A stretch of 64,000 bases of DNA from Bacteroidota bacterium (GTDB lineage Bacteria > Bacteroidota > Ignavibacteria > Kryptoniales > JAKASW01). The stretch covers positions 5,022-69,021 of the forward strand of contig JAJYRM010000008.1 in the NCBI GenBank assembly GCA_021794075.1. The letters are read 5' to 3'. A program made the translations under genes and the position numbers. The notes beneath the pieces are model-generated. The model was not told the origin of the DNA and did not search any database. It saw only the letters and a program-made list of their open reading frames with translations. Shown piece after piece: positions 1,687 to 56,768 of the stretch (its first letter is position 1; every line of letters begins with the position of its first letter).

Positions 1687-2139
1687 GTTCTCCGCAGGCT
1701 GATTTCAAGGAGGGCGAAGGAGGCAGCGAACTTGCCTGGATTGGCAAGGGGGTCGCGCAAAGAAATAGAGTGGACGTCCTTCCTGAGAGTCTGCTGGCGA
1801 CAGGACGGGGAGAAGATTTGCACGAGTTTGGCGTGGCTTCTTAGGGGAGTCTGATCTTGGGCGGCATCGATCTTGCTATCGGATCAGAAGCCGGATTAGC
1901 GGTTCATCATGCTGTTGACATTCATTATGGAATTACCGAGATTTTTTATGTAGTAAAAGTTGCATCGACACAAGCCTGGATACTCCGGACTAAAGAGTGT
2001 TGCAGCGTTCCATGCGATGCTCTATTCACATACCCGTCTGATACCAGCGTTGCTTCGGGCAGCGGCAGGAGTGGTACTGATATCGATGTCGATCTATAAC
2101 GACTTGACGATCATGGTATCAAAGAAGGGAGGGTACGAA

Positions 2140-2502
2140 ATGGAAGCCAAAAACCTGGCGATACTAAGGAACGAAATCTTCACCCGGGTTAGGTCAATAC
2201 TATACGAACGGTATGGGGAGTTCGTGCCTGACCCGCTGATTGAGAACGAATCGCAGGGGGAGACTGTTGTAAAGGCCATCAAGCGCGTCGAATCATTCAA
2301 GGCAGACGAGGATTTACTCGACTTATTCGAGGCGCTTGAGAAAGTTTTTTCGGGACGATACGGCTATTGCCTGTTTTGCAGGAAGGAAATAGAATTCTCG
2401 AAACTAATGAGAAACCCGCTGGCGAAGTTTTGCGATAGCTGCGAGCGCATACTGAACCCGAATTACGTTACGGGAGACGCGCAATCGGACGAAAAGCTTT
2501 AG
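2140..2502 (+). CDS. DksA/TraR-family C4 zinc-finger protein
   Basis: C-terminal CLFC-x17-CDSC four-cysteine finger. I moved the start to ATG 2140 because AGGGAGGG lies 6-8 nt upstream. The 60 upstream codons of the 1960 ORF look non-coding. Confidence 0.7.
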   Translation: MEAKNLAILRNEIFTRVRSILYERYGEFVPDPLIENESQGETVVKAIKRVESFKADEDLLDLFEALEKVFSGRYGYCLFCRKEIEFSKLMRNPLAKFCDSCERILNPNYVTGDAQSDEKL

Positions 2503-2571: not shown

Positions 2572-3633
2572 CTAGTGAACTGGTACAGCCGGCATCAGCG
2601 CCGAGGTGAGCGCGGACGCGATTTCATCGAGTGGCAGGACAGCGTCTGCAAGTTCAGCATCCACTATAGATTTCGGCATGCCGTAAACCACGGAAGTCTC
2701 CTCGTCCTGCGCGATAATTCTACCGCCCGATTCCTTTATCAATCTCGCCCCCTCGAGTCCGTCGTGACCCATCCCGGTCATCACCGCCGCGAGCACGCGT
2801 CCCCCGAACACTTCGTTCGCTGATGAGAACATTACATCAACTGAAGGGCGATGGAGCGTGTCGCCCGGATCTTTCGAGATGACAATCTTCGGAAGACCGC
2901 CGGTTCTTGTGAACTTCATATGAAGCCCGCCGGGCGCGATGTATACTTTTCCGCTGCTCAAATTCATACCGTCTTCCGCTTCGCATACCTCCAGCCGGCT
3001 GATCGAGTCGAGTCTTTCCGCGAGTGATTTTGTAAACTGCGGCGGCATATGCTGAACGATCGCGACGGGGACGGGGAAATCCACAGGAAGCGAAGGAATG
3101 ACTTTCTGGAGAGAGAACGGCCCGCCCGTGGAAATGCCGATGGTGACGATCTGGGTGCCGGATGTCTTCAGCTGCGACGGTCTGGGAAAATTCGATATCC
3201 TGTTTGTAAGATGCGTCGAGAATTGTCCGAACCTGCTTCGCGTGATCGCCTTTACTTTTGAAATAAGCTCGCCCTTGATCTTTGTGATATCCAGCGAGAC
3301 ATATGAGAGTTGCTTCGGTATGAAATCCACTGCTCCCGCCGAGAGCGCGTCTATTGTCGCGCGGGCGCCTTCGACGGTGAGAGAGCTAACCATGAGGACA
3401 GGAAGAGGGTTTTCGCGCATGATCTTCTTTAGCGCGGTGATCCCGTCCATCCGGGGCATCTCGACATCGAGAGTCATTAAATCAGGATGGAGCAGCTTCA
3501 CTTTCTCAATCGCGTCGATCCCATCCCTCGCGGTACCGACAACATCTATTTCTGGATCGTCTCCAAGCATCATGGATATAGCCTTGCGCATGAACGCGGA
3601 GTCATCGACAACGAGCACTCTGATCGTAGACAT
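2572..3633 (-). CDS. cheB: Chemotaxis protein-glutamate methylesterase CheB (REC + methylesterase)
   Basis: N-terminal receiver (IRVLVVDDSAFMRK, LMTLDVEMPRMDG) and a C-terminal CheB esterase domain (GISTGGP, VQHMP, GMGHDG). Start taken at MSTIRV; its ATG lies 1 nt after the cheA stop. Confidence 0.93.
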   Translation of the reverse strand: MSTIRVLVVDDSAFMRKAISMMLGDDPEIDVVGTARDGIDAIEKVKLLHPDLMTLDVEMPRMDGITALKKIMRENPLPVLMVSSLTVEGARATIDALSAGAVDFIPKQLSYVSLDITKIKGELISKVKAITRSRFGQFSTHLTNRISNFPRPSQLKTSGTQIVTIGISTGGPFSLQKVIPSLPVDFPVPVAIVQHMPPQFTKSLAERLDSISRLEVCEAEDGMNLSSGKVYIAPGGLHMKFTRTGGLPKIVISKDPGDTLHRPSVDVMFSSANEVFGGRVLAAVMTGMGHDGLEGARLIKESGGRIIAQDEETSVVYGMPKSIVDAELADAVLPLDEIASALTSALMPAVPVH

Positions 3634-3634
3634 T

Positions 3635-5458
3635 TCAGGCTCTCGCTTCGCTCGTTGTGGCGGCCTTTGTCGATTTCTCGACGAGACGCAAAAGCTCGCC
3701 CGCATCGATTATCATGATTACTCTGCCGTCGCCCAATATCGTGGAACCTGCTATTCCGGGAATGTTCTTCAGGTAAGCGCCGAGAGGCTTTATCACGATT
3801 TCTTTCTGACCAATCAGCCGGTCAACCACAATTCCGAATTTCTTGTTTGCCACACCGACGACGACGGTGTAAAACGCCTTGACACCCGTGTCTCTTCCTG
3901 GAACATTGAGTATTTCTGAAATGTCAACAAGCGGCAGGACCGTCTCCCGCAATCTGATCACTTCACGACCGTTTACCGTTGAGACTTCGGAGCGGGAAGT
4001 GCGGACAACTTCGAGAACCGAGCTTAAAGGTACGGCAAAAGTTTCGCCTCCGACCCCGACAAGGAGCCCCTGGATGATTGCCAGCGTGAGAGGGAGTTTC
4101 AGCGTAAATCTTGTCCCTTTGCCCACTTCGGATTCAACAGTGATTATGCCGTTCAATTTGGTGATGTTTGTCTTCACTACATCCATGCCCACCCCGCGTC
4201 CGGAGACGCTGCTCACTCTTTGAGCGGTGCTGAAGCCGGGTAGGAAAATCAGGCCATAGGTATCCTCTGTCTTCATGTCGTGCGCTTCTTCCGGCGTGAT
4301 GATCCCTTTTTCAATCGCCTTCTGTTTGAGTTTCTCCGGATCAATTCCGGCGCCGTCGTCCCTCACTTCAATTATAACATGATTACCCTCGTGTCCCGCT
4401 GAAAGGCTTATTGTTCCTTGCCGCGTCTTGCCCGATTTTTCCCTGACGTCTGCGGATTCAACTCCATGATCGGCGGCGTTCCTGATCAAATGCACGAGCG
4501 GGTCGCTGATTTCTTCGATAATCGATTTGTCGAGTTCGGTTTCCTCACCGCTGATAACGAGGCTTATCTCCTTGGAAAATTCGCGGGCGATGTCGCGCAC
4601 GAGTCTTGGAAACCTGTTGAAGACCCTCCCTATCTGGACCATCCTCGTTTTCATTACAGCTGTCTGAAGTTCCGTCGTAATAAAATCTATCTGTGCCGCC
4701 GTGTCATTAAGTTGATGAGAGAAGTCTTCGCGGCCATCCTCGTTCCTGTCGAGGGAGACAATCTGGGAAAGCCGGTTCCTGCCGAGCACCAGCTCTCCGA
4801 CGAGATTCATGAGATGGTCGAGTCGTTGAACATCAACCCTTATCGTAGTGTCGGTGATATTCTTCTCGCTCTTCGGTGGCTGCAAGTGTTGTGGCTGCGT
4901 TCCTTGCTCGGTCTGATGAGATTCGCTTGGCCTTGGGGAAGAGGTATCTTCAAGTGTCTCGGCTGCCGGTTCCTGTTTCGCGGCCTGCGATGCAGAAGGG
5001 ATGTCTTTGGCCTCGCTTGGTTCAGTTTTCGCGGCAGGCTGGCTGGAAGGGAGTTCTCCTTTAGAAAGGATCTCCAGCTTCTTTATCGTCGGGGTGAGAT
5101 CGATGTCGCTGATGTTCTGGTCTACAACTTGTTTCAACAAGACCTTCATCAGGTCGAAAGCTTCAAGCATCACGTCGAGCATCGCGGGCTGGAAGGAAAT
5201 TTCGCCTCGTCGCATCTTATTTAATACGTCTTCGAACCTGTGCGCGAGAACGCTCATCTGTTCGAAGCTGAGGAAGCCTGCGGTTCCTTTTACGGTATGT
5301 ACGGCGCGGAAGATGGAGTTAATGAGCTCTTTGTCATCCGGTCTCTTTTCAATCTCAAGGAGCTCATTGTCGAGCTTTTCAAATATTTCGTTGGTCTCTA
5401 CGATAAAGCTCTCTACAATTTCCTTCATATCGTCCGAGAACATCGCGTGCTGCGCCAT
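3635..5458 (-). CDS. cheA: Chemotaxis histidine kinase CheA
   Basis: HPt (HTVKGTAGFL), dimerisation region (RVDVQRLDHLMNLVGELV), HATPase (NAADHG, DDGAGI, GRGVGMDVV) and a C-terminal CheW-like domain. The P2 position is occupied by a low-complexity linker. Confidence 0.95.
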   Translation of the reverse strand: MAQHAMFSDDMKEIVESFIVETNEIFEKLDNELLEIEKRPDDKELINSIFRAVHTVKGTAGFLSFEQMSVLAHRFEDVLNKMRRGEISFQPAMLDVMLEAFDLMKVLLKQVVDQNISDIDLTPTIKKLEILSKGELPSSQPAAKTEPSEAKDIPSASQAAKQEPAAETLEDTSSPRPSESHQTEQGTQPQHLQPPKSEKNITDTTIRVDVQRLDHLMNLVGELVLGRNRLSQIVSLDRNEDGREDFSHQLNDTAAQIDFITTELQTAVMKTRMVQIGRVFNRFPRLVRDIAREFSKEISLVISGEETELDKSIIEEISDPLVHLIRNAADHGVESADVREKSGKTRQGTISLSAGHEGNHVIIEVRDDGAGIDPEKLKQKAIEKGIITPEEAHDMKTEDTYGLIFLPGFSTAQRVSSVSGRGVGMDVVKTNITKLNGIITVESEVGKGTRFTLKLPLTLAIIQGLLVGVGGETFAVPLSSVLEVVRTSRSEVSTVNGREVIRLRETVLPLVDISEILNVPGRDTGVKAFYTVVVGVANKKFGIVVDRLIGQKEIVIKPLGAYLKNIPGIAGSTILGDGRVIMIIDAGELLRLVEKSTKAATTSEARA

Positions 5459-5464
5459 TTCGAT

Positions 5465-6295
5465 TCAAGCCCCCTTACCGAACAATTTGTCTATTTCATC
5501 CTGTGATGTGTGGCCGGAACCGGTCTTGCTGGGCGGAGCCTTAGGAGGCGTCGTATCTCCAACTGACTGCACAACATGGTCCGCATCCCGCTGCGCGTTT
5601 CCGGATCTGTCGTACGTTGCGAGAGGATCAAATGTCCGCCCGTCCACTTTCTCGATTTCAGAGATTAGATCTGCCCCGGATATCTTGAATCTGTCGATAA
5701 GGTTAGCCAGCCTGTCCTGCACTGACTGAATCAAGTGGTTGACCGACGCGATTTGTTGAGAGGTGATATCCTGCACCTGGAGTGAGATCATTATGTCATT
5801 GGCCTTGTTGCGTATGTCCTGGAGACTGTCCTGAAGTCCGCCGGCGTTGGACCTGAGGGCCCTGATGTGATAGTCCTTCTGCTCATGTATTTCCGTGAGC
5901 TTTGCGAGCAGCTCGGAGTTACTCCCCTTCAGGGACGATTTCAGCATCTTGAGTTCCTGTTCGTCCAGGCTCTCTACCGCAGCCAGGTCGTTCGTAGCGG
6001 TCTGGAAATGGGAACCGATGGCGTTAAGCTTGGAGAGAACGCCGTCGAGGTTGTCCAGTATTTCAGTCGTGGCAAGCTCAGTCGCTTGTGTGACCTTGTT
6101 GAGCTGAGAAGATGCGCGCGGCATTTTGTTCGCGCTTTCATAAATTGATTCGTTTATTTCTTCGAGCACGGGAACTATGTCGTTGACGAAGTAAAATAGT
6201 TCTTCCAGAAACGGTATTACTCTTTGACCGAATATGAAGAGCGCGCGCAGCTCATTTATTTTGTCCAGGATTCCACCGAGATTTTTGGTGTTCAT
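5465..6295 (-). CDS. cheZ: CheZ-like CheY-P phosphatase (remote homologue)
   Basis: SLQVQDITSQQI matches the CheZ catalytic QDxTGQ-type motif (E. coli FQDLTGQ). The C-terminal SQDEIDKLF resembles the CheY-binding tail of E. coli CheZ (SQDQVDDLL). The gene sits between cheY and cheA, as in cheY-cheZ-cheA-cheB clusters. Confidence 0.55.
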   Translation of the reverse strand: MNTKNLGGILDKINELRALFIFGQRVIPFLEELFYFVNDIVPVLEEINESIYESANKMPRASSQLNKVTQATELATTEILDNLDGVLSKLNAIGSHFQTATNDLAAVESLDEQELKMLKSSLKGSNSELLAKLTEIHEQKDYHIRALRSNAGGLQDSLQDIRNKANDIMISLQVQDITSQQIASVNHLIQSVQDRLANLIDRFKISGADLISEIEKVDGRTFDPLATYDRSGNAQRDADHVVQSVGDTTPPKAPPSKTGSGHTSQDEIDKLFGKGA

Positions 6296-31015: not shown

Positions 31016-31252
31016 ATGATTAAACTGACACAGATAAATGGCGACGAGATCACGGTGAACGCTGATCTGATCGAGACCATAGAGAAAGCTCACGACACCA
31101 TCATTACGCTCACAACCTCTCGGAGAATTCGCGTTCGGGAAGACATCGAGGAGATAGTAAAGAGAGTCGTGGACTACAAGCGGCGCATCAATTCGCCGAG
31201 CGTCTCTTCAGGGAGTCCGGAAACGGAGAATCTCCCCGATCAGCCCCTTTAG
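31016..31252 (+). CDS. flbD: Flagellar protein FlbD
   Basis: MIKLTQINGDEITVNADLIETIEKAHDTIITLTTSRRIRVREDIEEIV is the FlbD family pattern. Confidence 0.8.
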   Translation: MIKLTQINGDEITVNADLIETIEKAHDTIITLTTSRRIRVREDIEEIVKRVVDYKRRINSPSVSSGSPETENLPDQPL

Positions 31253-39968: not shown

Positions 39969-40785
39969 TCAGGCAGTAAGGTTGAGGGAAGTGGTGAACG
40001 CTCAGACAGCCGTGGCGCAAATCGGCGATCAGCCGCATAAGATCAGCGTCGTAAGCGGAAAAGGCGGAGTGGGTAAGAGCAACATAGCCCTCAATCTCGG
40101 TATAGCACTCGCCCGGGATGGCGCACGTGTCCTACTGGTTGATGGTAATGTCAATCTTTCCAACCTCGATATCCTTTCTGGTGTTTCGCCGAACTACAGG
40201 CTCTTCGATGTGATTGAAGGGAAGGTAGGGCTCAGAGAGGCGACCGCGGAAATATCTCCGAACGTGTTTCTCCTTGCTGGCATGTCCGACGGAAGGTTGA
40301 AGAAGCTCGGGTCGGGAGACGCGGCAGCGTTCTTCAGAGAAGTAAAGCTCGCAGAGCCGGCATTCCATTACGCTGTGATCGATACAGCAGGCGGCATCGT
40401 GCAGGAGTCGATATCGCTCGCTCTCCTATCCGATGAGGTTCTTGTCGTCTCGACGCCGGAGCCGACGGCGGTCATGGACGCTTATGTGCTCGTGAAGGCG
40501 ATCAAAAGAATAAACGCGAACGCCGATCTGAGGTTGCTCATAAACAGGGCAAAGAGCGCCGAGGAGGCGGATGAAGTGAGAGCGAAGTTCGACCTGGTCA
40601 GCGAGCATTTCTTGAATCTCAAGATCGAATACGCCGGTTTCATCCCTTCGGATGAATCGGTCGAGAAAGCTGTAAGTGTGCAGTCGCCCTTAGTCAAAGA
40701 GTTTCCAGAATCCTTGTCTTCAAAGGCGATTGCTTCGATGGCGGAACGCATCCTGGCAAAAGGATCATTCAGGAAAAAAGTGTGA
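39961..40785 (+). CDS. flhG: Flagellar number regulator FlhG/FleN (MinD-type ATPase)
   Basis: Deviant Walker A SGKGGVGKSN and a MinD-like fold. An alternative start at 39937 is possible. Confidence 0.88.
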   Translation: MLDQAVRLREVVNAQTAVAQIGDQPHKISVVSGKGGVGKSNIALNLGIALARDGARVLLVDGNVNLSNLDILSGVSPNYRLFDVIEGKVGLREATAEISPNVFLLAGMSDGRLKKLGSGDAAAFFREVKLAEPAFHYAVIDTAGGIVQESISLALLSDEVLVVSTPEPTAVMDAYVLVKAIKRINANADLRLLINRAKSAEEADEVRAKFDLVSEHFLNLKIEYAGFIPSDESVEKAVSVQSPLVKEFPESLSSKAIASMAERILAKGSFRKKV

Positions 40786-41054
40786 TGGACAAGCTTGGAA
40801 TAAAAATACCGATGCTGGCCTTCTTCCTTGGCGTCGTTTACTTCGCCTCCGATGGATTCGGCGTCGTTGATGCGATAATAAGGGCGTTCATGCTTGCTTT
40901 CGGTATCGCCCTGATTATCCTCCTATTCACAATGCTACTCATGTTCTTCCTGACTCTTCAGAAGAACCGATCGGAAACCGAGAAAACACCTGCCGCGGAT
41001 CAGCGATCACAAACAGGTCAGCTGCAGAGCAAGAAAGTTGAGATGCAATCATGA
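40782..41054 (+). CDS. Hypothetical small membrane protein (2 TM) between flhG and fliA
   Basis: Two hydrophobic segments followed by a polar Gln/Lys tail. Its start overlaps the flhG stop and its stop overlaps the fliA start. No family recognised. Confidence 0.5.
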   Translation: MMDKLGIKIPMLAFFLGVVYFASDGFGVVDAIIRAFMLAFGIALIILLFTMLLMFFLTLQKNRSETEKTPAADQRSQTGQLQSKKVEMQS

Positions 41055-41779
41055 CGACTCAAGAACTCTGGGAAAAATACTCCCGGCGCAAGACGGCGGC
41101 AGTGAAGAAAGAACTCGTCCTTTCTTACATGAATCTGGTCAAATACGCGGCCCGAGCTATTAATCTCCCTTCGAAGTGCGTCTTCGACGCCGATGACCTG
41201 ATGAGTATAGGCATAATCGGTCTGGTGGAGGCGATAGAAAGGTTCGATCCGAAGCGCGGGGTGAAATTCGAGACTTTCGCGTCACAGAGAATTCGCGGCG
41301 TCATGCTTGACGAAATAAGGAAAGTAGATTGGCTCCCGAGGTCTGTCCGCGACAAATATAAGAAAGCCTCCAAATCGCTGAGCGAGCTCGATATGGACAG
41401 CATAAACGGCGAGAAGTACGCCCGTGCGATAAACATGAGTATCAGTGAGTTTGAGCAGATCAAGGGTTACCTGGCTAATGCCGAAACCGTCTCTCTCACC
41501 AGGACGATCGGTGAAGATATGACCCTTGAAGACGTGATTGGCAGCGACAGCGAAGTTATCGAGCAGTTCGAGGATGAGGAACTGAAGGGGCAGCTCGTGC
41601 AGATCCTGAAGCAGCTTCCTGAAAGAGAACGCATGGTGGTCACCCTTTACTATTACGAGGAACTCACCTTCAAAGAGATTGGAAAGGTTCTTGGGATAAG
41701 CGAGTCCCGCGTGTCCCAAATACATTCTGAGGTGATATCGAAAATGAAGGGGCAGCTAAGAAAGGTTGTTGAACTATGA
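41051..41779 (+). CDS. fliA: Flagellar sigma factor FliA (sigma-28)
   Basis: Region 2 (GIIGLVEAIERFDPKRGVKFETFASQRIRGVMLDEIRK), region 3, and region 4.2 (LPERERMVVTLYYYEELTFKEIGKVLGISESRVSQIHS). Confidence 0.93.
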   Translation: MTTQELWEKYSRRKTAAVKKELVLSYMNLVKYAARAINLPSKCVFDADDLMSIGIIGLVEAIERFDPKRGVKFETFASQRIRGVMLDEIRKVDWLPRSVRDKYKKASKSLSELDMDSINGEKYARAINMSISEFEQIKGYLANAETVSLTRTIGEDMTLEDVIGSDSEVIEQFEDEELKGQLVQILKQLPERERMVVTLYYYEELTFKEIGKVLGISESRVSQIHSEVISKMKGQLRKVVEL

Positions 41780-42942
41780 TAGGGGTTGGACAATTGACTG
41801 ACAGGTTATCATCGATAAAGGATTTGCCCACTTTTCCGACCACCGCGTTGGAAGTCATGCGGCTCGCGAGCGATTCGGACAGCAGCGCTGCCGAGCTGGC
41901 GAGGATAATTTCAAGAGACCCTTCGCTAGCGACCAAGATACTTCGGGTGGCTAATTCGCCTTATTATGGCTTTGCCAGAAAGATTTCTACTATTGAGTGG
42001 GCGATCGTCGCTCTCGGGTTTGAGACTCTGAGAGAGACCATCCTCTCACTGACGATGATTGACCTGTTCAAAGGCGGCGCGACGAAAAGTTTTGACCCGC
42101 GAAAGTTCTGGAAGCATGCCGTCGATACAGCCTCGGCCGCCCGGACGCTCGCGCGTGAGGTGAAATACAGGATCCCCGGTGAGGCGTACGCCTCAGGTTT
42201 ACTCCACGATGTCGGGACGCTGGTACTCTACAAGTATTTCCGGGATGATTTTGATGAGATACTCAGGCTTGAAAACGAAGAAGGGGTGCAGCCTTCCCAG
42301 GCCGAAGTGGTGGTCACGGGGACGACCCACGGCGAGATCGGTGCATGGCTCGCATCCAAATGGGGATTCCCGGCTTACCTCGTCGAGGCAATTCAGTTCC
42401 ATCACTCACCGGCGTTTGCTCAAGTGAATCCGGAGCTTACTTCGATAGTTCACGCGGCAAGCCTCATCGCGTCATCTGTCGGTTACTCCTGCGCTGACCA
42501 ACCTATAAGGTTCGATACCTTGGCGATTAAATATCTCGGGATCGAGAGGCTCTCCTCTCCCATGAGAATTCTCGCCAAGAAATATGTCAACGATGATAAT
42601 ACGAGCCTCATAAAAATTCGCGTGCCCATGACCGATTACGCGCCCGGCAGCGAACCGGAACTGCCCACAATCGATTCAGAAGAAAAGTCTGACGACGAAG
42701 TGGACGACGGCACTCTCAAGAGATTTTTCAAAGATGCTATAAAACTTCTTCCTTCGACCGAAAGACTGGTCTTGACTCTTAAGCTTTACGAAGGGCTTGA
42801 ACTCAGACAGGTGGCGACTGTGCTTGGTTACGAGGAAGCAATTGTCGCTGAGTATTACAAGAACGCAATTTCCGCGCTCCAGCAGATGGCTGAACGCGCG
42901 ATACTAACGAATAGGTTGGACCAATGGAAAATGAGATTCTAA
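41776..42942 (+). CDS. HDOD-domain protein with C-terminal FliA-like sigma region 4
   Basis: HDOD hallmarks: LPTFPTTALEVMRL, ANSPYYGF, GLLHDVG, HGEIGAWLASKWGFP, FHHSP. After an acidic linker comes LLPSTERLVLTLKLYEGLELRQVATVLGYEEAIVAEYYKNAISALQQM, which aligns to FliA region 4. An ATGA overlap links it to the fliA stop. Confidence 0.75.
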   Translation: MIGVGQLTDRLSSIKDLPTFPTTALEVMRLASDSDSSAAELARIISRDPSLATKILRVANSPYYGFARKISTIEWAIVALGFETLRETILSLTMIDLFKGGATKSFDPRKFWKHAVDTASAARTLAREVKYRIPGEAYASGLLHDVGTLVLYKYFRDDFDEILRLENEEGVQPSQAEVVVTGTTHGEIGAWLASKWGFPAYLVEAIQFHHSPAFAQVNPELTSIVHAASLIASSVGYSCADQPIRFDTLAIKYLGIERLSSPMRILAKKYVNDDNTSLIKIRVPMTDYAPGSEPELPTIDSEEKSDDEVDDGTLKRFFKDAIKLLPSTERLVLTLKLYEGLELRQVATVLGYEEAIVAEYYKNAISALQQMAERAILTNRLDQWKMRF

Positions 42943-43784
42943 AAGAAAAAGTACAGAATATCATACAGCTTCCCGCACTTCCCACTATTGCGGTCGAGGT
43001 TGCTTCGCTAATCGACAATCCGAACACGAGTGTCTCCAAGCTGACTAAAGTCATCTCCGCCGACCAGGTCCTGACTGCCAAGGTGCTGAAAATAGCGAAC
43101 TCGCCTTTCTACGGCTTTCAAAGGAAAATATCGACGCTCGATTTCGCCATCATGGTACTCGGCTTCGATTCGCTGAAGGAGATTTTGATAAGCGTTTCGT
43201 TAATAAGCGCTTTTAAAAAGAAACAGGACAAATATTTCAATTCGAAAGAGTTCTGGGAGCATTCGCTGGCTACGGGAATTGCCGCTCGTACCCTCGCGAA
43301 ACAGCTCGGCTATCGTATCAGCGGTGAATCGTTTGTGGCAGGGCTCATCCACGACATCGGGATACTCGTGACCCATCAATATTTCCACGATGATTATATA
43401 CAGATCGTCGATGCCGTGACCGACGGAAAGGTGTCCTTCCAGGATATGGAAGAGACGGTCCTCTTCGCCACGCACGGTGACATCGGGGCATGGCTGGCTG
43501 AGCGGTGGAATCTTCCCGATCAGCTCATTGAGGCGATCAGATTCCATCACAAGCCGAGCCTCGCCGAAAGAAACCCACAGCTGACGGCCCTGATCCATTT
43601 TGTCGATTATCTTTGCCATAAACTAGGTATTGGCGCTCTCTCCTATGAGAAAGTGCAGCAGTACGATCCTGAATCGTTGAAGATCCTTAACATCTCTGAA
43701 GCTGAGATGACCGAGGCTTTCTATGAGTCCTTCGGTTCGAAACTGCGCGAAGATCTTGAGCGGACATTTGTGAATATTATCTGA
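42924..43784 (+). CDS. Stand-alone HDOD-domain protein
   Basis: LPALPTIAVEVASLIDNP, ANSPFYGF, GLIHDIG, HGDIGAWLAERWNLP, FHHKP. It overlaps the previous gene by 19 nt. Confidence 0.85.
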   Translation: MENEILKEKVQNIIQLPALPTIAVEVASLIDNPNTSVSKLTKVISADQVLTAKVLKIANSPFYGFQRKISTLDFAIMVLGFDSLKEILISVSLISAFKKKQDKYFNSKEFWEHSLATGIAARTLAKQLGYRISGESFVAGLIHDIGILVTHQYFHDDYIQIVDAVTDGKVSFQDMEETVLFATHGDIGAWLAERWNLPDQLIEAIRFHHKPSLAERNPQLTALIHFVDYLCHKLGIGALSYEKVQQYDPESLKILNISEAEMTEAFYESFGSKLREDLERTFVNII

Positions 43785-43809: not shown

Positions 43810-45219
43810 ATGAAAAAAGAAGAGTTAGCAGAGAACGACACGAAAACGGAGAGCGGAAATCCGCAGACGCCTGCCGTTGCTGAGACAATAGAGCGATTCA
43901 TGGAGACTCGCGAATCGTACATCCATGCGCTGGAAAGCACGATTCAGATGCTCAAGATGAAGCTCGATTTGCACGAGAAGACCGAGACGGACATCAAACA
44001 GTCCCTCGACGAAATATTCGCGATGCAACGGCTTGCAAACACAATCAGCACCGCCACCGACCCAATCTCTGTCTTCGATTCTCTCCTGGAACTTACCCGT
44101 CAGGTGGTTCCCGTCGAAGAGAGCATGATATTCGAGGTCGGAGCGTCAAGGTCTCAGACGAAGCCCTTCCTTTCCACGTGCTCCGACTATATGCTCAAAG
44201 CTTCGCAGCATCTGCTTGAAGAGGGTATTCTCGACTGGGTTATCGAGCAGAAGAAGACGACCGTGGTGCCTGATCTTAACGCGTCGGTGGCGGAAGCCGG
44301 AAAGCGGAACTTTGTTGTTGTCCCGCTGACACTCCGCAACGAGGCCATCGGGGTCTACATCATTCGCACAAGCGGCTTGCGCAGTATATTCACCGACCAT
44401 GAATTGATGTTGCTCGGAATTCTTTCGAACCAGGCCGGCGTCGCGATCGAGAACCTTCATAACATTCACAAACTTATCGACGCCGCCGAAGAGCTGAAGA
44501 AATCGCAGTCCCAGATGCTTCAGGCCGCGAAGCTCGCCTCCCTCGGGGAGCTCGCGGGCGGTATCGCGCACGAAATCAACAACCCTCTTCAGATTCTCCT
44601 TGGCCATATCGCCCTCCTTCAACAGGGGAAAGATATCGAGCACAGGATCGAGATCATCAGGAGCCAGGTCCAGAGAATCTCTCAGATTACCCGCCAGCTT
44701 GTCTCGTTCTCCAGGAGCGTCCCCGAAGAACTTAGCCATGAGCTGGTCAATGTCAACTGGGCTATAAACGAAATCATAGCTCTCGTCGATTATCAGTTTA
44801 AGAACCGCGGCATAGATTTCGACCTGCGTTTCTCGGAAGACATCCCACCGCTGGACTCGAACAAGAACTATATGCAGCAGGCTTTCCTTAATCTTCTGAT
44901 AAACGCGAAAGACGCGATGCCTAACGGAGGAAAGATGATCATTTCAACAGAGTTCGTTAATGGGAAAATAAATATACGCTTCACCGATTCGGGGTCGGGC
45001 ATAAAAAAAGAAAACCTTGTCAAAATTTTCGAACCGTTCTTCACGACGAAGGAGCCAGGAAAGGGAACCGGCCTCGGCCTTCCGATCACGAGAGGGATTG
45101 TGAGGAAATTTGGAGGCGAGATCAAAGTCGACAGTATCGAAGGCCAAGGTACAACTTTTTCGATAGTGCTTCCGGTACTTAGAACCGGCAGCACTATCAG
45201 TGGAGGTAATGTTAAATGA
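43810..45219 (+). CDS. Cytoplasmic GAF-domain sensor histidine kinase
   Basis: No TM segment. GAF-like region (LLELTRQVVPVEESMIFEV ... VVVPLTLRNEAIGVYII), H-box GIAHEINNPLQ, N-box LLINAKDAM, G-boxes DSGSGI and GKGTGLGL. Confidence 0.85.
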   Translation: MKKEELAENDTKTESGNPQTPAVAETIERFMETRESYIHALESTIQMLKMKLDLHEKTETDIKQSLDEIFAMQRLANTISTATDPISVFDSLLELTRQVVPVEESMIFEVGASRSQTKPFLSTCSDYMLKASQHLLEEGILDWVIEQKKTTVVPDLNASVAEAGKRNFVVVPLTLRNEAIGVYIIRTSGLRSIFTDHELMLLGILSNQAGVAIENLHNIHKLIDAAEELKKSQSQMLQAAKLASLGELAGGIAHEINNPLQILLGHIALLQQGKDIEHRIEIIRSQVQRISQITRQLVSFSRSVPEELSHELVNVNWAINEIIALVDYQFKNRGIDFDLRFSEDIPPLDSNKNYMQQAFLNLLINAKDAMPNGGKMIISTEFVNGKINIRFTDSGSGIKKENLVKIFEPFFTTKEPGKGTGLGLPITRGIVRKFGGEIKVDSIEGQGTTFSIVLPVLRTGSTISGGNVK

Positions 45220-45896
45220 CAGGAATGTTCTTAATGTTTCTATCCGTCGCGGACACCGCGGCGGTAAATATCAGAGCGCTGGTGACAAGGGATATGGCGC
45301 GCGCGGCAGTCAAGGCCGCCGAGGCGGCGTATCGGAAACCTCCGAGCGAGTTTTTCGGGATCTCCGAGTTCGTGCTGCTTCTCGAGTTGGCGATGATCCT
45401 TGCCATGGCCGCCCTTCTTGTCGCCCTTGTCGTTCGGTCCAGGAGACTAGCGCGTGAACAAAAAGAGAAAGTGGCCCGGGCGCAACGGATGAGTGTCAAA
45501 CGGCCTGCCGCCATTACGAAGGCGGAGATCGAGAGGATACTCGGGCAGATCGCCGTCGATAAGGCGAAAAACGCGGAAGCGTTGACCGGAGCATATTACA
45601 TCGACAACAACGGTAGGCTCGATTCCGCGGCCGCCGTCCACGAGATGGCGAGGGAACACGGAATGGAATCTGAGCGGCTGAAATTTGCCATCTCATACGC
45701 CTCTCAGTCGGCGAGACAGACGGGCGCTAAGTTCAAGGAAGCTTTCTCGCTGGTCAGCGAAGAATCTGATCTGAACGTTTTGGCTCGTCAGCTCAACATG
45801 GGAAAGGGTGAGCTTGAACTTATCCTCGCGTTAAAACGGAGTAAGATTGCCAATTCCAGAAATGTTGTGGATAAAGGCAAAGGAGGAAAATCATGA
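45216..45896 (+). CDS. Hypothetical membrane-anchored protein with C-terminal HTH-like tail
   Basis: One TM segment (FVLLLELAMILAMAALLVALVV), a charged helical region, and C-terminal DLNVLARQLNMGKGELELILALKRS. That tail is reminiscent of flagellar-locus DUF2802/DUF6115 proteins, from memory only. ATGA overlaps on both sides. Confidence 0.45.
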   Translation: MTGMFLMFLSVADTAAVNIRALVTRDMARAAVKAAEAAYRKPPSEFFGISEFVLLLELAMILAMAALLVALVVRSRRLAREQKEKVARAQRMSVKRPAAITKAEIERILGQIAVDKAKNAEALTGAYYIDNNGRLDSAAAVHEMAREHGMESERLKFAISYASQSARQTGAKFKEAFSLVSEESDLNVLARQLNMGKGELELILALKRSKIANSRNVVDKGKGGKS

Positions 45897-49941: not shown

Positions 49942-50760
49942 ATGGATAAGATTCAGCAAAACATATCGGCAGGACAGGTTCAGTTAACCGCGCAGCAAAA
50001 AGCGAAACTCAAAGTCGCTGTGAAAGACTTTGAAGCCGTGTTCATGCAGTATATGCTGAAAGCCATGCAGGAAACCGAGAATATCGACGGAAAGAGCGAC
50101 AACAAGGGATACGGAAACGGTATCATGACCGGCCTGTTTAATATGAAGCTCTCGGAATACATGACAAAGAATTCAAGCCTCGGCATCGGTAGCATGCTTT
50201 ACAAGCAGCTTACCGGTGAGGAGATGGACACGACTCCTGCCGGGGTTTCTCAGTCGGAGCTCAACGATCCGGTCCAGGGGCTTCCCGATAAGCCGCAAAA
50301 TGTTCTTCAGAAGATAAAAGCCTACAGCTCGGGTTCGCTGCTGGAGAACGTCGGTAAATATTCCGATATAATTAATGAAGCGGCAGGTACCTACAATTTG
50401 CAGCCTAACCTGATAAAAGCTGTCATCGCCGCGGAATCTTCGGGGAACGCCGACTCGCTTTCGGTCAAGGATGCGAAAGGGCTCATGCAGCTTACCGATT
50501 CGACTGCAAAGGAAATGGGCGTCTCAAACCCGTTCAACCCGAAGGAGAACATAATGGGTGGCGCGAAGTATCTGAAAAGCCTTGTGGAGAAATTTCCCGG
50601 CGACCTTGAAAAGGCGCTGGCTTCTTACAATGCGGGACCCGGAGCGGTTGAGCAATACGGTGGCGTGCCTCCATACCCGGAGACACAAACATACGTCAAG
50701 AGAGTAATGAACTATTTAAACATGTTCGACGCGAGTGAGGTTGGCAATGGAGGACAATAG
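49942..50760 (+). CDS. flgJ: FlgJ-like rod-binding domain fused to a lytic transglycosylase (SLT) domain
   Basis: N-terminal rod-binding motif (AVKDFEAVFMQYMLKAMQE). C-terminal SLT signatures (AVIAAESSGN, GLMQLTDSTAKEMG, ASYNAGPGAV). Confidence 0.8.
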   Translation: MDKIQQNISAGQVQLTAQQKAKLKVAVKDFEAVFMQYMLKAMQETENIDGKSDNKGYGNGIMTGLFNMKLSEYMTKNSSLGIGSMLYKQLTGEEMDTTPAGVSQSELNDPVQGLPDKPQNVLQKIKAYSSGSLLENVGKYSDIINEAAGTYNLQPNLIKAVIAAESSGNADSLSVKDAKGLMQLTDSTAKEMGVSNPFNPKENIMGGAKYLKSLVEKFPGDLEKALASYNAGPGAVEQYGGVPPYPETQTYVKRVMNYLNMFDASEVGNGGQ

Positions 50761-51190
50761 TAAGAAACGTTTGCTAGACTTAACTGGACTGGAAACCGCC
50801 GAGTTCGAAAAAATGGCGGAGATACTTTTGAAGAAACGATCAGCAATTTCCAGTCTCGATACGGAAAGGCTCCAAACATTGGTGAGCGAAGAGCTTTCCA
50901 GGATGAACGAGATACGCGTACTTGAAAAGGAAAGAGCGGAAATTCTTCGGACTCTTTCTCTTTCGGGAGAAGAGCTCGTCGAGCCCGCGTCTCTAGACGG
51001 TAAACTGGGAAGTGAGTATGCAGGCAAGTTTCTGGAACTCCATGGGAAATTCCGTGCGGTATTCGCGAACGTAATGAGGCTGAACGATATGTGCCAGGTT
51101 TTGCTCCTGCATTCGCTCGCCTTCATTAAACAGAATATCCGAATCCTTACCGACGACGGTAAGCGAAGACTGGTCGACAAGAAAGCCTGA
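50747..51190 (+). CDS. FlgN-like flagellar export chaperone
   Basis: About 147 aa, helical, immediately upstream of flgK. The N-terminal pattern (LLDLTGLETAEFEKMAEILLKKRSAISSLDTERLQTL) is FlgN-like. Confidence 0.5.
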   Translation: MEDNSKKRLLDLTGLETAEFEKMAEILLKKRSAISSLDTERLQTLVSEELSRMNEIRVLEKERAEILRTLSLSGEELVEPASLDGKLGSEYAGKFLELHGKFRAVFANVMRLNDMCQVLLLHSLAFIKQNIRILTDDGKRRLVDKKA

Positions 51191-54245: not shown

Positions 54246-54946
54246 TGCGGAAGAGGCACAGCGCGGAGCATGATAACCAGGAAAGATGGCTCCTGACGTA
54301 TTCAGACTTGATCACGCTTCTTCTGGGCCTCTTTGTAATACTATATGCCAGCTCCCAGGTCGATATGAAAAAATACAAGCTGGTCGTTTCTGCTTTCGAG
54401 AATGTGTTCGGCGGCGGGAACACTGCCGGTCCACTTCCAGGGAGCCAGGGAGTGATGACCGCCCCGTCGGTCACCCCCCCTATGAGACAGTCCATGGAAA
54501 TGGAACGCAAGGTAAAATCCGTTCTGGGAAACAACCTGAGAAGCGGCAATATCTTGATTACAGAGGACGAACGTGGAGTGACAGTCCATTTCCTTGAGAA
54601 GTTGATGTTTGATCCCGGCAAAGCCGATATCAAACCTGATGCGCTCCCGGCACTCGATACGCTAGGGTTCCTACTTTCATCCATACCGAACGAGATTCGC
54701 ATCGAAGGAAACACCGACAATACGCCGATTCACACGGCGCTTTACCCGTCTAACTGGCAGCTGTCAATTGCACGGGCGATGAATGTGGGTTATTATTTAT
54801 TGAAACATTATCCAATACGGCCGGAGAAAGTGGCGATAGTCGGCTACGGGCAATATCATCCTCTTGTTCCGAACGACACCCCGGCCGACAAAGGAGAAAA
54901 CAGGAGAGTAGACATTGTCATACTCAACCGCATCACGTCAAAATGA
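54245..54946 (+). CDS. motB: Flagellar stator protein MotB
   Basis: WLLTYSDLITLLLGLFVILY with the conserved Asp, and a C-terminal OmpA-like domain (IRIEGNTDNTPI ... NRRVDIVIL). Confidence 0.9.
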   Translation: MRKRHSAEHDNQERWLLTYSDLITLLLGLFVILYASSQVDMKKYKLVVSAFENVFGGGNTAGPLPGSQGVMTAPSVTPPMRQSMEMERKVKSVLGNNLRSGNILITEDERGVTVHFLEKLMFDPGKADIKPDALPALDTLGFLLSSIPNEIRIEGNTDNTPIHTALYPSNWQLSIARAMNVGYYLLKHYPIRPEKVAIVGYGQYHPLVPNDTPADKGENRRVDIVILNRITSK

Positions 54947-54989
54947 CCCCGCATGGCGGGAAAGGACTGAGGAGAACGTGGAAGTGAAA

Positions 54990-55382
54990 ATGAAACTTGT
55001 GACGAGGCAGTTTGGTGAATTGGAGTTCGACGAGAGTATAATTTACCATTTCCCGAACGGCTTGCCCGGTTTTGAAGAACTTCACAACTTCATTATTATA
55101 GACGAGAAGGACACCGAGCCATTGCGCTGGCTGCTTTCCGTGGATGACCCTAACATTGGGTTTGCGCTTTTGGAGGCTTCGCTGGTTGCTCCCGATATTT
55201 ACAGGGAACTCCCTTCGGAAGAAAAATCGTCTATGGCGTTCGTTGTCGTGGTCCTGCGGCGAAATCCCGACCCGACCACGGCGAATTTAAAGGCGCCGAT
55301 CATACTTAACGAGGCCACGAGGACCGGGAAGCAGGTCGTCCTAAATTCTGATAGATTTTCTACACAATACAAGATTAACTGA
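54990..55382 (+). CDS. fliW: Flagellar assembly factor FliW
   Basis: FGELEFDESIIYHFPNGLPGFEELHNFIII...PLRWLLSVDDPNIGFAL ... ANLKAPIILN is the FliW family pattern. Start taken at MKLVTRQ; the 25 upstream codons of the track ORF overlap motB. Confidence 0.88.
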   Translation: MKLVTRQFGELEFDESIIYHFPNGLPGFEELHNFIIIDEKDTEPLRWLLSVDDPNIGFALLEASLVAPDIYRELPSEEKSSMAFVVVVLRRNPDPTTANLKAPIILNEATRTGKQVVLNSDRFSTQYKIN

Positions 55383-55397
55383 CCATGGAAGGCTAGC

Positions 55398-55679
55398 ATG
55401 TTAGTATTGACAAGGAAGTTGGGCGAAGTAATAAAAATCGGCGACAAGGTTAAAGTCGTCGTAGTCGCCGTAGATGGTGGTAGCGTCAAGCTTGGCATCG
55501 AAGCTCCGGACGAAATCCCAGTTCACAGAGAAGAAGTCTACGTGAAGATAGCATCGGAGAACAAGGAAGCTTCGTCAAGGCTCGACAGGGATAGCGCTAA
55601 AGCGCTGAAGGACATGCTTTCAAAAGGTTCTCCGCGAGCAAGCAAGGACTCGGAACGAACGGGAAAGAAGAATGCCTGA
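55398..55679 (+). CDS. csrA: Carbon storage regulator CsrA (long C-terminal tail)
   Basis: MLVLTRKLGEVIKIGDKVKVVVVAVDGGSVKLGIEAPDEIPVHREEVY is canonical CsrA, followed by a charged tail of about 40 aa. Confidence 0.93.
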   Translation: MLVLTRKLGEVIKIGDKVKVVVVAVDGGSVKLGIEAPDEIPVHREEVYVKIASENKEASSRLDRDSAKALKDMLSKGSPRASKDSERTGKKNA

Positions 55680-56388
55680 CGCTGCTCAGAAGCGCGTTCT
55701 GGTAATAGACGACACGAAAATCATCCAGAGGTTCGCCGAAGATTTCTTCAAGCGGATGAATATGTCCGTGTCGCTGGCTTCCGACGGTTATGAAGGCTTG
55801 CGGATGGCGCTTTCCTCCCGACCTGATGTTATATTCCTTGACCTGATGATGCCGAGGCTCGATGGCTTTAAAACTCTTCAGGTCATAAAATCTAATGAGG
55901 TCACCAAGGATGTCCCGGTCGTAGTCATGACGGCATACTCTGACAGGATAAATGTCGTGTCGGCGGGTAAGTTGGGCGCCGCTGCTGTCATTACGAAACC
56001 TCTTTCCGAAGAAGTCCTCTTGCAGAAATTACAACAGGTCTTCGGCAGGAACTTTATTAGGTCGATGATCCCGCGGGATCCGAAGGAAAAAGAAAACCCG
56101 TTCGGTGTGAAGGAAGAAGAGTACAGCGACGTCGTGCGAAGTATGGTCGAGGAATTCGTGGCGTACTTTGGCGAGCAGGTTGACTTGCTGGAAAAGGCTG
56201 TTCACGAAAAGGACATCAATACCATCAGAACGATTACCCATAACATCCGGGGCACGGGCGGATCGTTTGGTTATGATGAGGCGACTACGCTTGCGACCCG
56301 GCTGAACGAGGTCGTCCACCATTCCCCCGTTGATTGGGAGAACGCGGAAGAATTGCTTTTACAGTTAAAGAACAGGTTGAAAAAATGA
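55672..56388 (+). CDS. Response-regulator receiver fused to an HPt domain
   Basis: REC residues (VIDDT, FLDLMMPRLDG, VMTAYS, ITKPL) plus a C-terminal HPt (IRTITHNIRGTGGSFGYDEATTLATRL). The ATG lies inside the last codons of csrA. Confidence 0.8.
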   Translation: MPDAAQKRVLVIDDTKIIQRFAEDFFKRMNMSVSLASDGYEGLRMALSSRPDVIFLDLMMPRLDGFKTLQVIKSNEVTKDVPVVVMTAYSDRINVVSAGKLGAAAVITKPLSEEVLLQKLQQVFGRNFIRSMIPRDPKEKENPFGVKEEEYSDVVRSMVEEFVAYFGEQVDLLEKAVHEKDINTIRTITHNIRGTGGSFGYDEATTLATRLNEVVHHSPVDWENAEELLLQLKNRLKK

Positions 56389-56768
56389 AAGCGCTGGTTG
56401 CGGATGATGTACCGATGATCAGGAAACTCGTGGAGTTTCATCTGAAACAAGTCGGTTTTGATATTTCAAATGCTGCCGATGGGGCGGAGGCGCTCATGCT
56501 CGCGGAGACCAACAAGTATGATTTGATACTTTTGGACATAATGATGCCTGAGATGGATGGACTCGAGGTCCTGCGGCGAATTCGATCGGGAAACGTAAAC
56601 AAGGCCACACCGATAATAATCATGACCGCTTACGGCGATTCCGCGAACGTGAAAAAGGCGGTCGAATTCGGCGCGAACGACTTCATCGTTAAACCGGTGG
56701 AACAAGTTTCGTTTAGGAAGAAAGTTGTCAATGCGGTCAGTTCGCGGTCGAAGGAAGGCGGCAAATGA
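56385..56768 (+). CDS. Single-domain response regulator (CheY-like)
   Basis: ALVADDVPMIRK, LLDIMMPEMDG, IMTAYGD, FIVKPV. An ATGA overlap links it to the previous gene. Confidence 0.85.
   Translation: MKALVADDVPMIRKLVEFHLKQVGFDISNAADGAEALMLAETNKYDLILLDIMMPEMDGLEVLRRIRSGNVNKATPIIIMTAYGDSANVKKAVEFGANDFIVKPVEQVSFRKKVVNAVSSRSKEGGK

Follow-up and report, generated by a model that had tools for sequence, protein, structure and literature searches.

A stretch of 64,000 nucleotides (nt) from a Bacteroidota bacterium (assembly GCA_021794075.1, contig JAJYRM010000008.1, positions 5,022 to 69,021 of the forward strand; hereafter the window) carries a gene, directly downstream of the flagellar sigma factor gene fliA, in which an HDOD domain is joined to a region 4 of the sigma-28 type. 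The gene, hereafter HDOD-r4, extends from 41776 to 42942 on the plus strand, starts with ATG and was confirmed as an open reading frame (ORF) of 388 amino acids (aa). It is confirmed to encode a three-part protein composed of an HDOD domain, an acidic disordered linker and a FliA-type region 4 (sigma-4) with its fold kept. As a function we tentatively favour, at somewhat below an even chance, that the tail is a mimic of sigma-4 that competes with the sigma-4 of FliA for a partner binding its hydrophobic groove, under the control of the HDOD domain.

Architecture and distribution of the HDOD-r4 protein

The HDOD domain proper comprises residues 17–212 (41824–42411; all parts of the gene are given on the plus strand) and matched Pfam profile PF08668 over its entire length (model positions 1–196 of 196, E = 3.6e-63, 213 bits versus a cutoff of 22.9); the helical body goes on to about residue 273 (nt 42594). 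The linker, residues 274–310 (42595–42705), contains the motif SEEKSDDEVDD, is hypervariable and is disordered in the AlphaFold2 model, with a predicted local distance difference test score (pLDDT) below 50. It is followed by the region 4 domain, residues 311–377 (42706–42906), with AlphaFold2 helices at 311–322, 327–337, 343–350 and 354–377, and by a C-terminal extension, residues 379–388 (the LDQWKMRF region, 42910–42939), which has no FliA counterpart in the gap-free alignment and whose final 19 nt are shared with the start of the next gene, HDOD2. The full-length AlphaFold2 model is silent on docking of the tail to the HDOD domain. This layout of HDOD domain, acidic linker and region 4 tail had been proposed in an earlier sequence-only reading of the window, and is borne out by the Pfam, NCBIfam, profile-versus-PDB and AlphaFold2 results.

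The tail aligned without gaps to the adjacent FliA (23 of 72 residues identical; pairwise BLASTP, E = 4e-10), in line with the gapless hand alignment of the sequence-only reading, which had counted about 19 identities in 50 positions. Across 20 genomes, the tails showed 29–39% gap-free identity to region 4 of their cognate FliA over 59 columns. In the window protein, the Pfam region 4 profiles PF08281 (E = 0.0018, 18.3 bits) and PF04545 (E = 0.0074, 16.2 bits) remained under their gathering thresholds of 25.7 and 24.1. At the family level the signal was significant: PF08281 matched 30 of 32 members at E ≤ 0.01 (best, 4.6e-6), as compared to 32 of 32 for the HDOD profile, and a precomputed Pfam region 4 match is recorded for three members. 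Among more than 20 sigma models, the top match to residues 299–371 was the NCBIfam model FliA_WhiG (TIGR02479, E = 9.5e-8), at 32 bits versus a cutoff of 189.6 and covering model positions 150–222 alone. Pfam and NCBIfam scans gave no match to Sigma70_r2 or r3 in the fusion protein, which, devoid of regions 2 and 3, is therefore not a sigma factor.

Structural comparisons pointed in the same direction. When a profile built from 19 tails was searched against the PDB, the seven best chains were all FliA or WhiG (E = 1.9e-10 to 6.8e-6), the eighth being an extracytoplasmic function (ECF) sigma factor (E = 0.0096). The AlphaFold2 model of the tail alone (pLDDT 85.7) showed the four-helix sigma-4 fold and its best 50 PDB fold matches were all sigma region 4, supporting the earlier proposal that the fold was kept. 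WhiG superposed on the model at 0.8–1.4 Å root-mean-square deviation with 37–38% identity, and isolated sigma-4 domains gave template modelling scores of 0.70–0.90, normalised to target length. A HMMER search with the tail against 1.84 billion representatives returned only four close relatives, all of them the family itself or its fragments. The other matches were weak, and the eight of 236–270 aa that were checked all had FliA/WhiG-type sequence, six as full-length FliA/WhiG and two (P0137 and P0139) matching over the C-terminal part alone. Since close relatives are limited to the family and the remainder are weak FliA/WhiG matches, the tail is a lineage-restricted offshoot of sigma-28 region 4.

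The same search brought up a further non-sigma protein family bearing a sigma-28-type region 4. P0137 (253 aa) carries a VWA domain and a strong FliA/WhiG-type region 4 (PF04545, E = 1.5e-17), and P0124 (2693 aa) contains 12 VWA domains and 12 sigma-4-like stretches and could be an assembly concatenation. In addition, P0131 (648 aa) combines a SigB/F/G-like sigma factor (residues 55–272) with a second, ECF-like region 4 at 460–520.

In a search of 5.8 billion proteins, the fusion family comprised about 41 clusters of 382–398 aa, with 100% query coverage and 59–99% identity. They derive from independent assemblies (ENA, NCBI, JGI and Logan), among them contigs of 3–4.5 Mb and chromosomes. Below the family, identity fell sharply to about 41%, the proteins there being 286 aa long and consisting of HDOD alone. 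With the tail profile, 19 species-representative genomes (GTDB r232) were recovered, every one labelled as a Candidatus Kryptoniota or 'Bacteroidetes bacterium' metagenome-assembled genome. The architecture is well conserved and belongs to one branch of the uncultured phylum Kryptoniota. Mean column identity was 0.83 for the HDOD domain, 0.40 for the linker, 0.87 for the region 4-like part and 0.86 for residues 372–388. The linker also varied in length, with insertions in P0017 and P0023. The tail is thus the most conserved segment and is under strong purifying selection; next to a freely varying linker, this identifies it as a functional domain on a tether.

These data also bear on the view that the gene is an accident, either an assembly chimera or the decaying remnant of a fliA duplicate with no function of its own. 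The sub-threshold Pfam region 4 matches of the window protein would fit it, but the same 382–398-aa architecture recurs in about 41 clusters from independent assemblies and in 19 species genomes, the tail is the best conserved segment, and 20 of 20 genomes preserve the frame as well as the overlaps at both ends of the gene; we give this view next to no credence. An assembly chimera, a risk to which the sequence-only reading itself had drawn attention, is ruled out by the independent assemblies, the number of species, the constant gene order and the conserved overlaps.

For the HDOD module, Foldseek retrieved 3HC1 (E = 9.8e-11), MmoQ, SadB (9qzk), 3M1T and Cj0248, each with a probability of 1.00. 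The nearest solved relative by sequence was 3HC1, an HDOD protein of G. sulfurreducens (E = 3.4e-35), in which five His and one Asp bind two iron ions, the identity of the ligands being taken from the text of the source (PMC12075610). Residues H114, H144, D145, H185, H209 and H210 of the fusion align to identical 3HC1 residues and are invariant or nearly so in the family. Because this His/Asp set matches that of 3HC1 and is conserved, the HDOD domain of the fusion probably contains a two-metal site. As to what HDOD proteins do, an HDOD-only protein changes swimming in P. syringae (PMC11813219). SadB of P. fluorescens was reported to bind cyclic di-GMP (c-di-GMP; PMC6543031), which SadB of P. 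aeruginosa did not (PMC12075610).

SadB, which combines YbaK and HDOD domains and lacks three of the His residues mentioned above, brings about proteolysis of AmrZ, a regulator, and does so unaffected by mutations in its HDOD pocket (PMC12075610). HDOD-r4 could likewise be a proteolysis adaptor, in which the HDOD domain would recruit a protease, for example Lon, and the copy of sigma-4 would serve as a handle for dimerisation with, or recognition of, FliA, setting the level of sigma-28 and not its activity. FliA is a Lon substrate in enterobacteria, and the HDOD domain of SadB is among the structural matches of the fusion. Nevertheless, no YbaK match was found by Pfam in a protein whose HDOD domain begins at residue 17, the HDOD domain of the fusion has the full His/Asp set of 3HC1, unlike that of SadB, and nothing suggests pairing between two sigma-4 domains. 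We consider such an adaptor very improbable.

Residues of the tail and its candidate partners

Residue roles in the sigma-28 structures of P. aeruginosa (PMC12784957) were transferred to the gap-free alignment, and eight landmark residues served to verify the correspondence. In P. aeruginosa FliA, Q228 reads the −35 element, and its replacement by Ala impairs transcription, with S224 as a second −35 contact; residues L187, I191, L200, A203, L204 and L210 form the hydrophobic sigma-4 surface that grips FlgM, binding being about 190-fold weaker in the L204R mutant, and E209 forms a salt bridge to sigma-2 in the FlgM complex (PMC12784957). In the tails, the equivalent of Q228 (E359 in the window) is Glu in 19 of 20 cases and that of S224 is mostly Ala. 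The six groove positions read F, I, L, T, L and L in 20 of 20 tails. The equivalent of E209 is Gly in all 20, which fits a sigma-4 that has no sigma-2 partner.

Basic residues have changed as well. FliA-invariant R15 (column 15) is replaced in all tails, as are K54 and K56, basic in 20 of 20 FliAs, and R60, basic in 18 of 20; in the tail, a neutral or acidic residue occupies columns 15, 54, 56 and 60. The recognition helix carries a net charge of −1.15 in the tail versus +0.9 in FliA. Within this helix (residues I356-V357-A358-E359, 42841–42852), the sigma-invariant Arg is Ile356 in the window, an outlier, and Arg or Lys in the other 19 of 20 genomes. The claim of the sequence-only reading that the recognition helix differs from that of FliA is correct for the window sequence, Ile356 being the exception among the 20 genomes. 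Its companion claim, that the −35 contacts were probably lost, is upheld at the Q228 equivalent and weakened by the Arg position and by a domain charge that is not acidic. Judged by the alignment, the tail has probably lost −35 contacts, a loss for which the support is real but incomplete.

Combined, these features are consistent with mimicry. HDOD-r4 would be a two-module regulator produced together with sigma-28, in which a sensing HDOD domain is connected by a flexible acidic linker to a diverged sigma-4 copy. The copy would read no promoters and would instead mimic the sigma-4 of FliA itself, competing for an anti-sigma-28 factor that grips FliA sigma-4 through the FlgM-type hydrophobic groove. 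Two candidates may be considered for this factor: a FlgM encoded elsewhere in the genome, and the co-operonic HDOD2 protein, whose orthologs are encoded directly after fliA in relatives that have no fusion. Whether the mimic is masked or exposed would depend on the signal sensed by the HDOD module, a paralog of HDOD2, and the fusion would act as an anti-anti-sigma factor or buffer in the manner of PhyR. The data show the identities of the domains, their fold and conservation, the gene order, the coupling of translation, the loss of the Q228 equivalent and the upkeep of the groove residues; metal binding, every protein–protein contact and the direction of regulation are what we infer in this scheme.

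The same residues were weighed for a one-component transcription factor, in which the HDOD domain would sense and the sigma-4-like helix-turn-helix (HTH) would bind DNA, probably as a dimer formed via the C-terminal extension, to repress or activate flagellar promoters with altered specificity. DNA is bound by sigma-4 domains in isolation and by the related HTH domains of the LuxR/GerE type, and an N-terminal sensor followed by a C-terminal HTH is the commonest one-component layout, both of which count for this explanation. So do the Arg or Lys at the sigma-invariant Arg position (19 of 20), the conserved K/R49 and N50 on the recognition helix, the domain charge of +1.4, the extra conserved C-terminal helix as a possible dimer interface, and the presence of 2H27, a sigma-E region 4 bound to DNA, among the fold matches of the tail. 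By contrast, Glu takes the place of the base-reading Gln in 19 of 20 tails, Ile is accepted at the Arg position in the window, several FliA-conserved basic residues are gone, and the recognition helix is net acidic. Moreover, no GerE (PF00196), LuxR or other DNA-binding HTH family matched the tail in Pfam at E ≤ 1 (GerE matched the neighbouring FliA at E = 0.015), and the nearest sequence relatives are sigma-28 region 4 and not the HTH of transcription factors. A transcription factor is the main alternative to mimicry, if a rather unlikely one.

Another target of the groove could be RNA polymerase (RNAP). The sigma-4 groove takes up the beta-flap tip helix in sigma factors, and the copy might dock there, either delivering the HDOD domain or blocking sigma-4 docking in general, like an anti-sigma factor acting on the core enzyme. 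In favour of such docking, the groove is fully kept and the prediction of a sigma-4 fold is of high confidence. Docking on the beta-flap would, however, disturb all sigma factors, yet genetics tie the fusion to fliA alone. In P. aeruginosa FliA, substitutions L187R and L204R barely affect motility (PMC12784957), so these residues are not clearly decisive for RNAP binding. We regard an RNAP-directed module as improbable, only slightly less so than the adaptor discussed above.

Several observations weigh against mimicry of FliA sigma-4 as formulated here. The net charge of the whole domain is +1.4 in the tail versus +0.65 in FliA region 4, hence not acidic, and the tails keep Arg or Lys at the Arg position (19 of 20) and gain Lys or Arg at column 49, so that the tail may bind DNA. 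The groove residues belong to sigma-4 folds and beta-flap binding in general, and single out neither FlgM nor any other partner. FlgM may well be encoded elsewhere in these genomes, and HDOD2 appears tied to FliA by gene order alone. As to descent, grouping of the fusion's HDOD domain with HDOD2 received 0% bootstrap in neighbour-joining (NJ) trees, so a simple recent duplication of the HDOD gene is not demonstrated. Finally, the tail is 32% identical to its cognate FliA, 29–33% to FliAs of other lineages and 37–38% to WhiG, identities by which its source gene would not be traceable to the cognate FliA.

Gene order at fliA and origin of the fusion

The fliA gene (41051–41779, plus strand) encodes a FliA of 242 aa with canonical regions 2, 3 and 4 (NCBIfam FliA_WhiG, E = 9e-67, 225 bits versus a cutoff of 189.6; Pfam region 2, E = 2.1e-17, and region 4, E = 6.7e-20). 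Its stop codon overlaps the HDOD-r4 start in an ATGA at 41776–41779 (plus strand), indicative of translational coupling. The overlap, noted already in the sequence-only reading, was read in the window and found as (A/G)TGA in 20 of 20 genomes, GTGA in two of them. HDOD2 (42924–43784, plus strand; PF08668, E = 3e-65) encodes a stand-alone HDOD paralog of 286 aa, 41% identical to the HDOD domain of the fusion, and overlaps the end of HDOD-r4 by 19 nt in 20 of 20 genomes. It is followed in the same operon by a gene for a GAF-HisKA-HATPase histidine kinase (43810–45219, plus strand; Pfam), the position of which is the same across all 19 loci, and also in L020 and L023, which are outgroup loci.

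Two membrane proteins flank this group. The gene for the first, of 90 aa (40782–41054, plus strand), lies between flhG and fliA with a 4-nt overlap with both neighbours; it is kept in 19 of 19 loci and has no family assignment, and an ORF of 72–80 aa occupies its place in L020 and L023, which are of the Kryptonium type, and in L025. The second, of 226 aa (45216–45896, plus strand), ends the regulatory block before flgF, gave weak DUF2802/DUF6115 matches only, and is kept in the 17 of 19 Kryptoniota loci reaching that far. Its place after the sigma-28 gene is reminiscent of SwrB, which follows sigD in Bacillus subtilis. The complete order, flhF, flhG, 90-aa membrane protein, fliA, HDOD-r4, HDOD2, kinase, 226-aa membrane protein, flgF, flgG, was invariant in the 19 loci, three of which end early at a contig end. 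Pairs of sigma and regulator genes typically show such coupling and fixed order. HDOD2, the older adjacency of fliA and HDOD described below and the conserved C-terminal extension had not featured in the sequence-only reading.

Proteins of Ca. Kryptonium thompsonii were among the nearest HDOD-only relatives. Kryptonium-type loci share the order of the flagellar genes and differ in having just one HDOD gene, encoding 291 aa, directly after fliA and before the GAF kinase gene. In NJ trees, HDOD2 and this single fliA-adjacent Kryptonium HDOD were grouped with 87–94% bootstrap, and the HDOD domain of the fusion was placed on a longer branch just outside the group. In a third lineage, represented by locus L025 (AT-rich, 30% GC; 3469–5873), fliA is followed by two tandem tail-less HDOD genes of 294 and 290 aa. 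The FliA of L025 is short, at 210 aa; Pfam matched its regions 2 and 4 and gave no region 3 match. The tandem pair was considered as an unfused ortholog of the fusion and rejected, since NJ trees show the two proteins to be each other's paralogs, the product of an independent duplication. Because fliA is followed by a plain HDOD gene in these relatives, the fliA–HDOD linkage is older than the fusion and the region 4 tail was a later gain. On these trees, HDOD duplication beside fliA occurred more than once, and sigma-4 was acquired by the extra copy only in the clade of the window.

A single tandem duplication spanning region 4 of fliA and most of the HDOD gene would give the order fliA-[HDOD::r4]-HDOD2 in one step, but is unproven. 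In its favour, the junction registers are alike: [CAA][TGG] at the region 4/HDOD2 junction mirrors [CTA][TGA] at the fliA/HDOD-r4 junction in 20 of 20 genomes, in all of which W384 (TGG) of the fusion is in the same register as the TGA stop of fliA. However, the NJ tree does not support this one-step origin, as the HDOD domain of the fusion stands apart from HDOD2 (0% bootstrap), although on a long branch; in addition, the tail is no nearer to the cognate FliA than to other FliAs, and the fliA/HDOD junctions of the outgroups have no ATGA overlap.

The fusion itself, together with the fliA–HDOD adjacency in Ca. Kryptonium and in the third lineage, constitutes a Rosetta-stone-type hint of an interaction between HDOD proteins and FliA sigma-4. 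HDOD2 was considered as the groove-binding partner on account of this hint, of the fliA–HDOD coupling in lineages without the fusion and of the paralogy of both HDODs. In its general form, the idea is that in Kryptoniota and relatives the HDOD protein encoded after fliA is an anti-sigma or holding factor for sigma-28 that acts on region 4 and replaces FlgM wholly or partly, the fusion being a decoy that would free FliA upon a signal at its metal-containing HDOD domain. We rate this as unlikely, a shade below the transcription factor discussed above.

The alternative partner, FlgM, was sought in the window, which holds a minus-strand chemotaxis cluster and a flagellar locus of about 40 kb, from flgB to motAB, fliW, csrA and two response regulators. 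FlgM (PF04316) gave no match in the fusion or in about 55 window ORFs scanned with Pfam, a scan that left out the large, readily placed flagellar genes fliF, fliG, fliH, fliI, flgE, fliM, fliN, fliP, fliQ, fliR, flhB and flhA. With this scope, the earlier statement that the locus has no recognisable flgM is sustained. Two ORFs were considered as a hidden flgM and rejected: one of 98 aa (2527–2823) is spurious, overlapping cheB on the opposite strand, and one of 78 aa (31016–31252) is FlbD. FlgM genes often precede flgN, and here flgJ runs with its 3' end 26 nt into the FlgN gene, so that no flgM fits between them. The FlgJ protein (49942–51190, plus strand) combines the rod-binding domain with an SLT lytic transglycosylase domain instead of glucosaminidase. 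Flagellin, fliD and fliS are absent from the window, and flgM may therefore lie with them elsewhere.

At the end of the flagellar locus (54915–56768, plus strand) lie the genes for FliW (54915–55382) and a CsrA of 93 aa (55398–55679), which suggest flagellin control of the FliW–CsrA type, though no flagellin gene is in the window. They are followed by genes for a receiver-Hpt protein (55672–56388) and a single-domain response regulator (56334–56768). Beside the chemotaxis cluster, ORF 1960–2502 (plus strand) showed a sub-threshold match to a DksA/TraR-type C4 zinc finger (E = 1.1e-4, 22.5 bits versus 24.9); a TTG start gives 180 aa, and the internal Met of MEAKNL may be the real start, giving about 120 aa.

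Significance and comparison with known systems

Little is understood of what HDOD, a widespread signalling domain, does at the molecular level, and several proteins containing it influence motility by an unexplained mechanism. A natural fusion of HDOD to a copy of the domain by which sigma-28 binds promoters and anti-sigma factors, in every case produced along with sigma-28, points to a testable idea, namely that fliA-linked HDOD proteins act on sigma-28 via region 4. Were the decoy function true, it would be, after PhyR, only the second example known of sigma-factor mimicry in regulation and the first derived from a group-3 sigma factor, and it would show how late flagellar genes can be controlled where the flagellar locus has no visible flgM. 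Should an HDOD protein turn out to be the anti-sigma factor, this mimicry would have evolved independently, and a stand-alone HDOD protein would for the first time have a molecular function, in sigma control. The outgroup loci, for their part, make an extra HDOD copy gaining a sigma domain beside a sigma gene a clear example of the origin of such regulators.

In the literature, no paper was found that connects HDOD to region 4 of sigma factors or to anti-sigma factors, and none of the papers found for Kryptonia and flagella, by title or abstract, appears to deal with flagellar regulation. The sources label the family members 'HDOD domain-containing protein', 'nucleotidyltransferase with HDIG domain' and, once, 'RNA polymerase sigma factor', in agreement with the sequence-only reading, the author of which knew of no described family combining HDOD with region 4. 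The HDOD::sigma-4 architecture is new; the fusion of a sensor to sigma-domain mimicry is of a kind already known.

That kind is represented by PhyR, an anti-anti-sigma factor the sigma-like domain of which mimics the sigma factor and titrates the anti-sigma factor NepR (PMC4551977); PhyR, NepR and sigma-EcfG make up a partner switch in the general stress response of Alphaproteobacteria. Like the fusion, PhyR is a non-sigma protein with a sigma-derived domain beside a signalling domain. It has ECF-type sigma-2-like and sigma-4-like regions and a phosphorylation-gated receiver, whereas the fusion has a group-3, sigma-28-type sigma-4 only, an HDOD domain and a disordered linker. The PhyR model NF006623 matched the tail weakly and in its region 4 part only (E = 0.00098, 18.9 bits versus a cutoff of 240), and Pfam gave no match to a receiver domain or sigma-2-like part in the fusion, which is consequently not a PhyR. 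Mimicry has been shown for PhyR and would be deduced for the fusion, with no anti-sigma candidate in the window.

A different way of acting on sigma-28 is found in the HptB–HsbR–HsbA switch of Pseudomonas aeruginosa, in which cytoplasmic sequestration of FlgM sets sigma-28 activity independently of FlgM export. This switch employs STAS and anti-sigma-kinase-type proteins, as opposed to the sigma mimic and HDOD domain of the fusion. The HDOD proteins 3HC1, MmoQ, SadB, Cj0248 (C. jejuni) and PSPTO_4229 (P. syringae) share fold and sequence family with the HDOD module. They have no sigma region 4, the HDOD domain standing alone or with receiver or YbaK domains in the papers found. Effects on motility or biofilm are described for several of them (PMC11813219, PMC12075610, PMC6543031), and SadB, with PhyR a precedent for the mimicry scheme, acts by protein–protein contacts, as proteolysis adaptor for a transcription regulator (PMC12075610). 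LuxR/GerE regulators resemble the fusion in having a sensor followed by a C-terminal four-helix HTH structurally related to sigma-4; the tail differs from them in having no GerE match, in the sigma-4 order of its helices (two helices, then the HTH) and in its nearest relatives, sigma-28 region 4. Of the FliA/WhiG family and its anti-sigma factors FlgM and RsiG (the latter linked to c-di-GMP), the anti-sigma factors themselves show no similarity to the fusion. Compared to FliA and WhiG, the fusion is devoid of regions 2 and 3, has Glu for the −35 Gln and bears a 10-residue C-terminal extension; its tail is nevertheless nearest to region 4 of this family, keeps the FlgM groove and is encoded by a gene coupled to fliA.

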